Of a stretch of DNA of 64,000 nt, positions 15,302 through 17,391 are shown piece by piece. The position numbers and the translations under genes are program-made. The DNA comes from Deltaproteobacteria bacterium (GTDB lineage: Bacteria; Myxococcota; Kuafuiibacteriia; Kuafuiibacteriales; Kuafuiibacteriaceae). The DNA lies in NCBI GenBank assembly GCA_016713425.1, contig JADJPE010000005.1, positions 3,086,143-3,150,142 on the forward strand, written 5' to 3'. Within the stretch, counting starts at the first letter, position 1. Every line of letters starts with the position of its first letter. Below the pieces are notes generated by a model. It ran no database searches, was not told the origin of the DNA, and worked only from the letters and a program-made list of their open reading frames with translations.

Positions 15302-16516
15302 ATGGCCATGTTACTCGCCTCCTTCAGCGTGAGCGGAGGTGCTGCTTACGCTGAGCCGACTGGTGTTTCGAATCAACCGAAGAAGAAAGTTGTGGTTGAA
15401 GGCTGGGGCAACATAGTTGAGGCCAACGTTGCAGATGCCCGGTCGAAGGCGATCCACGACGCCCAAAAGAAAGCCATCGAGATCAGTGCCGGAGTGCATG
15501 TAAGGTCGATGATGACCGACGATTCATTCTCCGTCCTGCGGGGGAACAACGAGCAGTTTGCCCAAGCGATTCAGCAGAAGATCGAAATCACGTCGGATGG
15601 CTTTGTGTCCGACTACAGCGTTCTCAAGGAGTGGGTTGAAGGAAACACTTACAAGGTCGAGCTGGAGGTTGAGGTTAACGACGTCGCGTTGATGCGCGAG
15701 CTTGCGTTCTTGGCTCGTCGTCTTTCTGGTGCACGCTTTCCCAAGATCATGTTCCTCCTTCAGGAAGAATACACAGATCAAGCCGGACAAACCGGCGTCG
15801 TCTTCGAGCCCACCTTTCAAGCCCACTTGGAGGACGCCTTCCTGGCTCGTGGGTTCGACCTTGTAGCTCAGGACCAGATCAAGAAGCTGCGTGCAGAAGA
15901 GGCCGAGGTGTTCGACGACATCATCACTGACGAGAACAAGGCAGCAAAATACGCCATGGGCTACGGCGCCGAATATGTCATTACCGGCACGGCGCGAGTA
16001 CGTCACACAAGCTTCGACGATCTCGGCCAGAAGGAGCATCACGGCCACGCCGAGCTCTACATAAGAGCAGTTGACGCATCCACAGCGGGAGTTATCGCGA
16101 GTAACAAGGTAGCTGGCAGTTCACCACCGAACTGCTTCAGTGAACCTGACCTTCGGGTTAGGAGCGTCACTCACGTAGGAAAAAATCTCATCGACAGTCT
16201 CATTCGACGGATTGTCGAATCCTGGGACAAGGAATTGGCCAACGGTGTCCGATACTCGGTCAAGCTGTACGGCGCTAAGAGCTTCAAGAAGGAGGGAACG
16301 CGCTTCATCACGATGATCCAAGGAGTGCCAGGCGTGAAGCAAGTGAAGAAGCTCAGCTTCGGTGGGCAGCGCTTGGAACTTGAAGTTTTCTTCGGGGCGT
16401 CATCCGATGTGAGTGTTCTCGAAAGGGAGATCCTAAGAGTCTCTGAACAGGAACACCTCTTCAAAGCGATGGATGTAACGTACTCAAGGGGCCGTGAGCT
16501 GAACTTCAAATTGTAA
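15302..16516 (+). CDS. Secreted protein with LPP20/FlgP-like repeats; low-GC gene
   Basis: Probable start at MAMLLASFSVSGGAAYA (signal peptide); KKVVVEGWGN...ARSKAIHDAQKKAIE pattern; visibly lower GC than flanks. Family call tentative. Confidence 0.45.
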   Translation: MAMLLASFSVSGGAAYAEPTGVSNQPKKKVVVEGWGNIVEANVADARSKAIHDAQKKAIEISAGVHVRSMMTDDSFSVLRGNNEQFAQAIQQKIEITSDGFVSDYSVLKEWVEGNTYKVELEVEVNDVALMRELAFLARRLSGARFPKIMFLLQEEYTDQAGQTGVVFEPTFQAHLEDAFLARGFDLVAQDQIKKLRAEEAEVFDDIITDENKAAKYAMGYGAEYVITGTARVRHTSFDDLGQKEHHGHAELYIRAVDASTAGVIASNKVAGSSPPNCFSEPDLRVRSVTHVGKNLIDSLIRRIVESWDKELANGVRYSVKLYGAKSFKKEGTRFITMIQGVPGVKQVKKLSFGGQRLELEVFFGASSDVSVLEREILRVSEQEHLFKAMDVTYSRGRELNFKL

Positions 16517-16521
16517 CGGGG

Positions 16522-17391
16522 ATGCGGGTCATGGCGGTGTTCAGCTATCAGTTGGGGTTATCTGGGCTCGGTCTTTGGTGCGCGGTCTCGCTGTTATCTG
16601 TCGTGCTCGTACCCTCGTCAGCGGGGGCGAGTGGTGAGCTGGGCAAGGTGGCGGTCCTCGACATGCAGACGACTGACGTGCCTCCCGGGCTCGTCGGTGT
16701 CTTGACAGAGGTACTGACAGCCGAGGTTCAGGACGCGGATGTGTTCGATGAAGTCATTGCGGGTCGAGATGTTGCTGCGCTCGTTGGGTTCGAAAGACAG
16801 CGTCAGCTTGTGGGCTGCTCTGAGGAGAGCTGTATGTCGGAAATTGCCGGTGCCCTTGGTGTTGACCGCATCTTGGTCAGCCAAGTTGCCAAGGTCGGAA
16901 GCAGTTTCGTGCTCAACCTGAAGATGCTCGAGGTGCGCACCGGACGCGCCGGAAAGCGGATCTACGAAACGATGAAGGCGGACGAAGATGTGCTAATCAG
17001 AACCATTAGGGCATCCGTTCAGAAACTTCTCCTCGTCCGGCTCGACGCCGAAGTACCGTCGGGAACCTCACAGTCCTGGTCCATCGACATCACGAAGGAT
17101 GTTCCACCAACGAGTGGTCCGTCGGGCCCTGGAACGCTCTCTCTCGTCGGGTTTGGTGTCGGACTGGCCGCAGGTGTGACGGGAGCGGTTTTTGGGGTGA
17201 TGGCGAGAGGCCACTACGCCAATACCACCGACCCGGACTTTGTGGGCTCGCAGTTGGAGGTCGCGCCCGGAAAAGCTGACGCACTGATCGCCAATATCAG
17301 CTTCGGAGTGGCCATCGCGGCAACGGTGGCCGCGGTTGCCTTCTGGTTGTTTCCTGGAGAGGTGTCACGCGATCCGAACTCCGAACGCTGA
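16522..17391 (+). CDS. Secreted protein with a TolB_N/LpoB/FlgT-like domain and C-terminal hydrophobic anchor
   Basis: Signal peptide; GKVAVLDMQ...GCSEESC...LGVDRILVSQVAKVGSSFVLNLKMLEVRTG; hydrophobic C-terminal segment; starts 5 nt after the previous gene. Confidence 0.45.
   Translation: MRVMAVFSYQLGLSGLGLWCAVSLLSVVLVPSSAGASGELGKVAVLDMQTTDVPPGLVGVLTEVLTAEVQDADVFDEVIAGRDVAALVGFERQRQLVGCSEESCMSEIAGALGVDRILVSQVAKVGSSFVLNLKMLEVRTGRAGKRIYETMKADEDVLIRTIRASVQKLLLVRLDAEVPSGTSQSWSIDITKDVPPTSGPSGPGTLSLVGFGVGLAAGVTGAVFGVMARGHYANTTDPDFVGSQLEVAPGKADALIANISFGVAIAATVAAVAFWLFPGEVSRDPNSER

Follow-up and report, generated by a model that had tools for sequence, protein, structure and literature searches.

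To our knowledge, FlgT, FlgO and FlgP are known solely as add-ons of high-torque flagellar motors. Rings at the envelope are also formed by PelC and CsgG, which have in common with FlgO, LpoB and the N-terminal domain of TolB an alpha/beta fold of the TolB-N type. FlgT, of the H-ring of the Na+-driven polar flagellar motor of Vibrio (3w1e, 8z5n, 9yef), is a secreted, non-lipidated periplasmic protein of about 380-400 residues. Its SHS2-type N-terminal domain, TolB-N-like middle domain and small C-terminal domain have been delimited as FlgT_N (24-109), FlgT_M (121-287) and FlgT_C (292-377), and its partner FlgO forms a ring at the envelope (bioRxiv 10.64898/2025.12.02.691832). FlgP and Lpp20 are SHS2-type outer-membrane lipoproteins, represented in the Campylobacter basal disk and the Vibrio H-ring. 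Within the FlgP family, ring formers have an insertion that follows the SHS2 helix and precedes the second strand (PMC12222027).

Here we analysed a pair of adjacent genes in a 64-kb stretch of DNA (hereafter the window, meaning the whole of that stretch). The folds, domain order, conserved adjacency, fusions and absence of flagellar neighbours are shown below. We place the pair in a large non-flagellar family in which FlgT-like proteins are accompanied by FlgO/CsgG-like partners. Our preferred reading, to which we assign a probability of roughly 0.6, is that the two genes are co-transcribed and that their products act jointly as a periplasmic, membrane-anchored envelope scaffold, a non-flagellar relative of the H-ring proteins of Vibrio and the Myxococcota branch of the FlgT-like family.

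The two open reading frames and the 5-nt gap between them, as proposed in a first-pass annotation, are real, and its view that the genes are closely linked, run in one direction and encode envelope proteins is supported. NCBI places the start of gene 1 two codons further in (402 residues) and that of gene 2 three codons further in, at 16531 (286 residues); both products and their relatives are annotated as 'hypothetical protein' in every source. The sequence AGGA stands 3 nt 5' of the gene 1 ATG (15302), no terminator-like site was found between the genes, and a scan for sigma-70 consensus sites found none in the unique region 5' of gene 1. The features of the locus are collected in Table 1.

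Table 1. Positions in the window of the gene pair, the domains of its products and the flanking elements; residue numbers refer to the encoded proteins.
Feature	Position	Strand	Description
IS91-family 3'-terminal fragment	14425..15117	-	693 bp, inverted; constant IS end at 14425, internal break at 15117
Region 5' of gene 1	15118..15301	+	184 nt, unique; single copy within the window
Gene 1	15302..16516	+	404 aa; secreted FlgT-like protein, three domains; NCBI IPK13_11865
Gene 1 N domain	15380..15679	+	residues 27-126; beta-alpha-(helical insert)-beta-beta; LPP20/FlgP/FlgT_N (SHS2-like) type
Gene 1 middle domain	15743..16243	+	residues 148-275 and long helix 281-314; TolB-N/CsgG/LpoB/PelC-type alpha/beta fold
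Gene 1 C domain	16247..16510	+	residues 316-403; small, beta-alpha-beta-beta-alpha-beta-beta
Gene 2	16522..17391	+	289 aa; membrane-anchored partner, FlgO/CsgG/TolB-N fold; NCBI IPK13_11870
Gene 2 globular domain	16645..17049	+	residues 42-176; invariant Cys99/Cys104 in motif GCx4C...ALGVD
Gene 2 disordered linker	17050..17124	+	residues 177-201; pLDDT <50; length variable among homologues
Gene 2 hydrophobic hairpin	17131..17349	+	helices 204-236 and 243-276; conserved loop motif FVGxQ
Cys-rich lipoprotein/RCC1-repeat gene, 5' part	17428..17864	+	about 145 codons; cut at IS91 junction 17865
IS91-family element, 5'-truncated	17865..20909	+	nested IS110-family element at about 18012..19493

The AF2 model of the gene 1 protein (pLDDT 82.7) is composed of three domains, at residues 27-126, 148-314 and 316-403, which correspond in order and size to FlgT_N, to FlgT_M and to FlgT_C. 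FlgT supplied the two best Foldseek matches to this model (3w1e, E 6.2e-10; 8z5n, E 1.5e-8), in alignments that span the full length (397-410 columns) at about 12-14% identity; differences in domain orientation keep the global TM-score low (0.26-0.34). The first-pass annotation had expected a FlgT-like fold in gene 2; such a fold is present, but it belongs to gene 1, and gene 2 as a FlgT-like member is rejected, whereas the TolB-N-type fold also attributed to gene 2 stands. At the level of sequence families, Pfam FlgT_N matches gene 1 at residues 31-125 (E 4e-4; 21.2 bits, under the cut-off of 28.8) and also matches 63 of 74 relatives. FlgT_M and FlgT_C were absent from gene 1 at E <= 1, its C domain, which ends in the family motif YSRGRELNFKL, has no Pfam match, and neither gene 1 nor gene 2 alone reaches a curated Pfam or NCBIfam cut-off. 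The gene 1 family profile matches FlgT at E 0.0024-0.03 and FlgP of C. jejuni (9hmf_C) at E 1.8e-8, or E 0.008 with a narrower profile. LPP20/FlgP-like repeats, as originally described for gene 1, are reduced by these results to one such domain: the N-terminal unit is single and the other two domains differ from it in fold. At the position of the insertion in FlgP-family ring formers, this unit carries a helical insert of roughly 30 residues. Signal peptides had been noted on both proteins; gene 2 has a hydrophobic segment at residues 11-36, and the signal of gene 1 is weaker than stated, its atypical sequence MAMLLASFSVSGGAAYA having no basic n-region and a short hydrophobic core. Homologues of gene 1 have ordinary signal peptides. 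Gene 1 has no lipobox and no Cys within its first 30 residues.

The gene 2 protein is built from a signal peptide and a single globular domain of the FlgO/CsgG/PelC/TolB-N fold, followed by a disordered linker and a membrane hairpin of two helices. Hydrophobic segments at residues 205-228 and 252-279 account for the C-terminal anchor recognised earlier; no glycine-zipper or other Pfam family was found for the hairpin, and with 289 residues ending in these helices the protein has no beta-propeller. Block-mean pLDDT in the globular domain is mostly 86-95, and 60-73 at residues ~81-110. Its alpha/beta fold is that of the TolB-N-like group (TolB_N, LpoB, CsgG, PelC, FlgO, DUF2380). Pfam matches to DUF2380, FlgO, LpoB and CsgG are weak; in the gene 2 family, DUF2380 matches 8 of 15 members and FlgO 2 of 15 (E 0.04). 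On gene 2 itself, DUF2380 (PF11684) stays under its cut-off of 30.1 bits with a score of 17.7, and there is no NCBIfam match; a sequence search of the PDB with the gene 2 profile gave only spurious short matches to nuclear-receptor co-activator peptides. A tail of about 20 residues (..AP...G....GG.F), present in 14 of 14 homologues, is missing from this gene 2 and was not found hidden in other frames. Together with the weak gene 1 signal peptide, this loss indicates that the present copy of the pair may be impaired.

The association of the two proteins is conserved. Among eight close loci counted as independent (the window, L001, L002, L004, L005, L006, L007 and L016), exactly one protein with the gene 2 domain lies 0-2 genes from the gene 1 homologue in all eight; no second protein of this kind was found in these loci or elsewhere in the 64-kb window. 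A search with a narrower alignment returned one locus from genome contigs, on the same contig as L001, and three from metagenome contigs, two of which repeat L001 and L005. In L002, L004, L006 and L007 the partner is a PEGA-domain membrane protein with a GCx4C...LGVD domain as in gene 2. Remoter relatives adjoin genes for CsgG (L009) or for FlgO+DUF4384 proteins (L011, L012); a recognisable FlgO/CsgG-like neighbour is absent in two of five remote loci (L010, L013), and hhalign comparisons of the gene 2 profile with the unassigned neighbour in L013 and with the FlgO+DUF4384 neighbour in L011 were not significant. In three proteins (P0083, P0088, P0098) a FlgT-like part is fused, in the order of the gene pair, to a CsgG/FlgO-like part and a two-helix hairpin (DUF5683), and in P0140 the parts stand in reverse order. 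By hhalign, the gene 1 side (A1) matches residues 27-397 of P0083 at E 9.7e-39, and the whole architecture of gene 2 (A2) matches residues 548-786 of P0088, including the DUF5683 hairpin, at E 7.4e-6. No flagellar Pfam families were found in the neighbourhoods of the 13 related loci or among the scanned ORFs that flank the pair (9673..23152). A profile search of the FlgT-like family gave more than 3000 clusters at 50% identity, and a search of the literature on non-flagellar FlgT/FlgO homologues and on DUF4384 found nothing relevant.

The scaffold that we propose would work as follows. Gene 2 would be exported through its signal peptide, and its C-terminal two-helix hairpin would anchor it in a membrane, most probably the inner membrane. 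Its one FlgO/CsgG/PelC/TolB-N-fold domain would be presented on a flexible linker; a Cys99-Cys104 disulfide probably stabilises this domain. Gene 1 shares its three-domain plan with Vibrio FlgT; its product is predicted to be soluble in the periplasm and would bind the domain of gene 2. FlgT/FlgO/FlgP, PelC and CsgG all form rings, and by analogy the complex probably oligomerises too, as a ring or lattice that would support or organise another envelope structure. A scaffold of this kind would give a first functional frame to a large family of 'hypothetical' envelope proteins.

A further step, which we consider rather unlikely, is that the FlgT, FlgO and FlgP of H-rings and basal disks were recruited from a non-flagellar envelope ring system of which the pair is a living example. 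If this were true, a membrane-tethered ring would encircle or buttress another trans-envelope machine, or organise the cell wall, in non-flagellated Myxococcota, and the family of more than 3000 clusters would represent a widespread, undescribed periplasmic scaffold. The conserved, hairpin-tethered and sometimes fused pair, with no flagellar genes nearby, would be a concrete, testable candidate for a pre-flagellar role of the FlgT/FlgO/FlgP folds.

The folds and neighbourhoods also bear on two other functions. The pair could regulate peptidoglycan enzymes as LpoB does: its TolB-N/LpoB-like domains would dock on an enzyme, either a class A PBP or a lytic transglycosylase, so as to activate or position that enzyme, with gene 2 as the membrane tether. 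Two remote homologues are suggestive in this respect, that of L013 being located upstream of a class A PBP, at a distance of two genes, and that of L011 being directly followed by an SLT lytic transglycosylase. However, no PBP or glycosylase adjoins the pair in any of the eight close loci, and the whole-protein match of gene 1 is to FlgT, not to LpoB. LpoB is, moreover, a lipoprotein of the outer membrane and has a long linker at its N-terminus, whereas gene 1 and gene 2 are both without a lipobox. We regard a role of this sort as unlikely. Quite unlikely, in our estimation, is that the pair belongs to an export route for an amyloid or polysaccharide at the surface, as CsgG and PelC do, and forms a funnel or an accessory to a channel in the periplasm. 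One remote locus does combine LPP20, a TPR/SLH protein, a FlgT-like protein, a true CsgG (E 2.5e-40), FecR and Omp85, but genes for a substrate, a glycosyltransferase, Wza/Opx or curli subunits are missing beside the pair in the close loci, CsgG-type transmembrane hairpins are not evident, the proteins have no lipobox and the Pfam CsgG score lies under the cut-off.

The surroundings of the pair raise the separate question of its origin, since the first-pass annotation had proposed the horizontal acquisition of genes visibly low in GC and bracketed by IS elements. Its description of the elements proved accurate, with an IS91-like fragment that breaks exactly at 15117 and an RCC1 gene that is indeed truncated by an insertion sequence. 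The upstream fragment shares 96-97% identity with the 3' ends of seven other copies within the window, has a Y2_Tnp Pfam match and has the terminal sequence ...GATTGATTGCCCTATCGGCC in common with other copies; the downstream element is 99.8% identical to 45206..48250. The same IS91 element occurs about ten times within the 64-kb window, as copies or as fragments. The interrupted ORF joins a Cys-rich lipoprotein-like N-terminus to one RCC1-type motif (GGRHTCA at 17845) and is in frame with gene 2, with one TGA between them; the remainder of the gene was not found elsewhere in the window.

The claim of low GC holds for gene 1, which at 53.9%, against 62.1% for the window, is the lowest of all 1215-nt intervals in the 64 kb, but not for gene 2, whose 59.8% is within the variation among genes of the window (0.619 +/- 0.029). 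The pair as a whole has 56.5% GC against a window mean of 62.2% (sd 1.9), placing it in the lowest 0.3% of intervals. The calculation of GC and codon usage against the window thus bears out the low total GC of gene 1, but both GC3 (0.65 for gene 1 and 0.67 for gene 2, against 0.69 +/- 0.06 for window genes) and synonymous codon use (distance ranks 14 and 4 of 29, respectively) are ordinary. The deficit of gene 1 lies in codon positions 1 and 2, with a GC2 of 0.373 against 0.506 +/- 0.057, and its protein has GARP and FYMINK fractions of 0.25 each. With GC2 low and GC3 and synonymous codons ordinary, the dip in gene 1 is attributable to amino-acid composition. In five of six other loci, the gene 1 homologue likewise lies 3-5 GC points under its flanks, with a GC2 of 0.34-0.40, so low total GC is a property of the protein family. 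Composition is accordingly rejected as evidence for transfer.

These results weigh against a more explicit form of the proposal, in which the pair is horizontally acquired IS91 cargo, adjacent DNA carried along when the terIS-less copy at 17865..20909 transposed by a one-ended rolling-circle mechanism. IS91-family elements are known from IS91/ISCR biology to mobilise DNA next to a missing terIS, and the unique segment 15118..17864 is situated accordingly: it lies between an inverted IS91 3' fragment and an IS91 element without its own 5' terminus, in the position of cargo next to the terIS side. The GC minimum of the window in gene 1 would also fit. Nonetheless, amino-acid composition explains that minimum, homologues elsewhere show the same low GC, and, with about ten IS91 copies across the window, any gene here would be 'bracketed', so that the bracketing of the pair is not specific. 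The segment occurs once in the window, where it shows neither foreign composition nor further IS-linked copies, each protein is recorded from a single contig, and the RCC1 gene was broken by the IS rather than carried whole. The nearest homologues, at most 57% identical, come from similar uncultured Myxococcales/'Deltaproteobacteria' assemblies. We consider the cargo explanation quite improbable and horizontal acquisition in general not supported; the pair looks like a resident chromosomal locus overtaken by an expansion of IS91 and IS110. As a caution for genome scanning, a sharp dip in GC beside IS elements can result wholly from amino-acid composition and a local IS bloom, and is by itself no sign of gene transfer.

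That this copy is a decaying, no longer functional remnant in surroundings damaged by IS expansion is very unlikely: the unusually weak gene 1 signal peptide, the loss of the conserved gene 2 tail ahead of a truncated gene in frame, and the IS fragment that cuts the upstream region 184 nt before the gene 1 start, with no promoter-like site found, would agree with it, but both ORFs are full length and intact, gene 1 keeps 77 of 77 columns invariant among its 10 closest relatives and gene 2 keeps 15 of 15, and the promoter scan was limited to sigma-70 consensus sites.

Taken as an envelope scaffold, the pair can be compared with several described systems. Certain membrane proteins of myxobacteria, which combine a PEGA domain with one or two TolB-N-like domains, include the GCx4C...LGVD domain found in gene 2. 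Gene 2 has no PEGA domain, and where these proteins end in a single helix it ends in a two-helix hairpin. To the FlgO/CsgG/TolB-N-type domain, gene 2 adds its disordered linker and this hairpin; unlike TolB, the pair has no beta-propeller, and unlike CsgG it has no evident membrane hairpins. The N domain of gene 1, with its beta-alpha-insert-beta-beta order, resembles FlgP and Lpp20, and its insert is located where the ring-forming members of the FlgP family have theirs, although it is helical and not a beta-hairpin; unlike FlgP and Lpp20, the unit is one domain of a larger protein, without repeats, that is not a lipoprotein. The closest likeness is to FlgT. Gene 1 differs from it in domain orientation, in a sequence with little identity, in the absence of flagellar neighbours and in its Myxococcota-type hosts, and gene 2 differs from the partner of FlgT in being anchored via a C-terminal helical hairpin and not by an N-terminal lipid. 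Both FlgT and gene 1 are nevertheless secreted, non-lipidated proteins of similar length; in both, the SHS2-type N domain is followed by a TolB-N-like middle domain and then by a small C domain, and each has a partner of the FlgO/CsgG fold.

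The two co-directional open reading frames named in the first-pass annotation, gene 1 and gene 2, were borne out at their coordinates and lie 5 nt apart. They are recorded as IPK13_11865 and IPK13_11870 on a 7.3-Mb contig, both as "hypothetical protein", with annotated starts 2 and 3 codons, respectively, inside the ORF starts used here. No terminator-like site was found between them, and a scan for sigma-70 consensus sites found no sigma-70-like promoter upstream of gene 1.

Taken alone, gene 1 gave only sub-threshold Pfam matches, to FlgT_N (E 4e-4, residues 31-125) and to LpoB and CsgG (residues 184-274). 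When 5.8 billion proteins were searched by word index, 23 relatives came back, none of them named, with identities of 24-58%. A profile run against 1.84 billion cluster representatives gave 3190 relatives with E <= 1e-3, of which 198 had E <= 1e-30; most have a length of 380-410 aa. FlgT_N was matched by 63 of 74 sampled relatives (best E 1.3e-13), and CsgG, LpoB or DUF6175 by some; the pair belongs to a large family without a name in any source. The AlphaFold2 model of gene 1 (pLDDT 82.7) consists of a disordered leader and three domains, and Foldseek against the PDB ranked FlgT first and second (3w1e, E 6.2e-10; 8z5n, E 1.5e-8) over ~400 columns; differing domain orientations keep the global TM-score low. 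FlgT itself has 377 residues (N 24-109, M 121-287, C 292-377) and forms a 26-fold ring (bioRxiv 10.64898/2025.12.02.691832). With a broader family profile, the N domain matched C. jejuni FlgP (9hmf_C, E 1.8e-8) and FlgT (E 0.0024-0.03). FlgP, Lpp20 and FlgT_N share a variant of the SHS2 fold, whose ring-forming members have an insertion following the helix (PMC12222027), and gene 1 has a ~30-residue helical insert at this position. The model, Foldseek and profile matches therefore identify gene 1 as a FlgT-like protein, whereas the first-pass annotation, its domain assignment partly swapped, had placed the FlgT likeness in gene 2. The LPP20/FlgP character that it gave to gene 1 holds for the domain type; repeats are ruled out, a single such domain being present. 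The signal peptide of gene 1 (MAMLLASFSVSGGAAYA) is present and weak, that of its homologues is normal, and gene 1 has no lipobox.

For gene 2, 37 relatives were found, and the architecture predicted in its model (pLDDT 71.8) is common to 14 aligned close relatives (30-44% identity). Two long hydrophobic helices account for the C-terminal anchor noted earlier. Within the family, Pfam gives weak matches to DUF2380 (8 of 15 members) and FlgO (2 of 15). Invariant residues include an ALGVD motif and Cys99 and Cys104 (GCx4C), a pair that would form a periplasmic disulfide. All 14 aligned homologues have a ~20-residue C-terminal tail (..AP...G....GG.F) that is missing from gene 2, and no other reading frame was found to encode it; gene 2 is followed, across a single TGA, by the truncated RCC1 lipoprotein ORF in the same frame (17389..17440). 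The tail may have been lost by a nonsense mutation and subsequent divergence, or through a rearranged 3' end. This copy of the pair thus shows small signs of impairment; that it is a decaying remnant is less well supported than the tethered complex described below.

Synteny of the pair extends to all eight independent close loci (the window, L001, L002, L004, L005, L006, L007 and L016), each with exactly one gene-2-domain protein 0-2 genes from the gene-1 homologue; no further gene-2-domain protein was found in these loci, nor elsewhere in the 64 kb. The partner has one domain and the hairpin in the window, L005 and L016; two domains, PEGA and a helix in L002 and L004, and similarly in L007, without a PEGA Pfam hit; one domain and PEGA in L006; and a membrane region followed by one domain in L001. 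Among remoter loci, the next gene encodes a FlgO+DUF4384 protein in L011 and L012 and a true CsgG in L009, in a cluster with LPP20, TPR/SLH, FecR and Omp85, and the neighbours in L010 and L013 have no recognisable FlgO/CsgG-like assignment. Three database proteins (P0083, P0088, P0098) are natural fusions of FlgT-like and CsgG/FlgO-like parts with a two-helix DUF5683 hairpin, and a fourth (P0140) is fused in reverse order without the hairpin. The gene-1 profile aligned to residues 27-397 of P0083 (E 9.7e-39), and the gene-2 profile to residues 548-786 of P0088, spanning domain, linker and hairpin (E 7.4e-6).

Alongside these observed folds, adjacency and fusions, the best-supported picture is a tethered periplasmic complex of the two products. 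We infer that the gene 2 hairpin tethers its protein to a membrane and presents the FlgO/CsgG-like domain, to which the three-domain FlgT-like protein would bind; by analogy with FlgT, FlgO, FlgP, PelC and CsgG, the assembly would probably oligomerise into a ring or lattice supporting another envelope structure. A CsgG/PelC-like export accessory is less well supported, as is an LpoB-like regulator of cell-wall enzymes. In two remote loci, L013 and L011, the FlgT-like gene has a class A penicillin-binding protein or an SLT lytic transglycosylase 1-2 genes away, hinting at a connection with the cell wall. Five loci repeatedly show Ser/Thr kinases, FGE-sulfatase-domain proteins or both near this gene, in one case with a fused caspase-like peptidase; these neighbours may represent a third component or regulator. 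No flagellar genes were found in the neighbourhoods of these loci (in the window, among the scanned ORFs of 9673..23152).

Low GC, proposed for both genes, applies to gene 1, at 53.9% the lowest of all 1215-nt windows in the 64 kb, and not to gene 2, at 59.8% inside the normal range of the window; the pair has 56.5%, versus a mean of 62.2% (sd 1.9) for same-size windows (lowest 0.3%). Gene 1 has GC1 0.593, GC2 0.373 and GC3 0.652, below averages of 0.661, 0.506 and 0.690 (sd 0.047, 0.057, 0.060) for 48 coding-like ORFs of the window, and the dip is therefore located in codon positions 1 and 2. Its protein is low in Gly/Ala/Arg/Pro (0.25 vs 0.34 +/- 0.05) and high in Phe/Tyr/Met/Ile/Asn/Lys (0.25 vs 0.16 +/- 0.04). 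Synonymous codon-use distance from other genes of the window is ordinary (gene 1 rank 14 of 29, gene 2 rank 4 of 29). In 5 of 6 loci of other organisms the gene-1 homologue is 3-5 GC points under its flanks, with GC2 of 0.34-0.40 and GC3 still high (0.78-0.95). Gene 1 is genuinely low in GC, but this reflects its protein family and is no foreign signature.

A single IS91-family element is represented some ten times, by copies or fragments, across 7121..56261 of the 64-kb window, nine of them in one orientation. All share a 3' terminus, ...GATTGATTGCCCTATCGGCC, and differ in their 5' break points (174 bp to over 3 kb), as expected from rolling-circle transposition that is one-ended or prematurely ended. 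The copy beyond the pair is 99.8% identical to 45206..48250. IS110 is nested at the same IS91 site in all three of its copies; a composite IS91::IS110 was therefore copied as a unit. Between the two IS91 copies that flank the pair, the unique DNA is 15118..17864. It contains both genes and, from a Cys-rich lipoprotein gene, the first ~145 codons, with its first RCC1-type motif (GGRHTCA) just short of the junction at 17865; the remainder of that gene is absent from the 64-kb window. Both boundaries described at first pass are accurate, the IS91-like fragment ending exactly at 15117 and the RCC1 gene being cut at the IS91 junction. The broken gene suggests a resident locus struck by an IS bloom. 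Directly upstream of the pair, an SbcD-like ORF overlaps an SbcC/Rad50-like one, and its start adjoins the IS91 fragment. At 20615..23152, IS91 sequence has taken the place of the C-terminal coding end of a PD40 protein gene.

Capture of the pair by one-ended IS91 transposition, and its import as cargo, would fit an adjoining copy that lacks a 5' terminus, but has no positive support: IS91 copies occur every few kb, so that bracketing says little about these two genes, and the low GC recurs in homologues. The initial observation was thus largely right and its horizontal acquisition unsupported, and the tethered complex remains the better reading.

Positions of features in the window, the two proteins and related loci
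Feature	Position	Strand	Details
Gene 1 ORF	15302..16516	+	404 aa from first ATG, preceded by AGGA
N domain	residues 27-126		beta-alpha-(helical insert)-beta-beta
Middle domain	residues 148-275		alpha/beta; then long helix 281-314
C domain	residues 316-403		small beta-alpha-beta-beta-alpha-beta-beta
Gene 2 ORF	16522..17391	+	289 aa
N-terminal hydrophobic helix			predicted model
Alpha/beta domain	residues 42-176		largely confident in predicted model
Disordered linker	residues 177-201		predicted model
Two long hydrophobic helices	residues 204-236, 243-276		predicted model
IS91-family piece (Y2_Tnp)	14425..15117		693 bp; inverted
5'-truncated IS91	17865..20909		Zn_Tnp_IS91, nested IS110 (~18012..19493), Y2_Tnp
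Other IS91 copy ends	8990, 27088, 30064, 34891, 40330, 48250, 51443, ~56261		
IS110-family element	18012..19493, ~24190..25674, 45353..46834		409-aa DEDD transposase
SbcC/Rad50-like ATPase, SbcD-like metallophosphoesterase	9673..14438	-	1145 aa, 443 aa; overlapping
PD40 beta-propeller/peptidase-MA-like protein	20615..23152	-	IS91 sequence 20615..20909; (GAGGGC)n tract encoding (Ala-Leu)n near N-terminus, 22883..23026
Kinase/FGE-sulfatase neighbours	L002 9259..11106, L004 7291..8544, L005 8114..9082, L007 4616..5992, L011 3280..5889		
Penicillin-binding protein or SLT neighbours	L013 8058..10598, L011 7165..8283		

The likest known system is the FlgT/FlgO part of the H-ring of the Vibrio flagellar motor. 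The pair differs from the H-ring family in reaching no curated sequence cut-off, in having no flagellar context in the examined loci and in its anchor. With its function at the level of prediction, the pair fits best among the envelope scaffold proteins, as a new and non-flagellar form of that known kind. That it may be connected with the origin of flagellar periplasmic rings is an attractive possibility.
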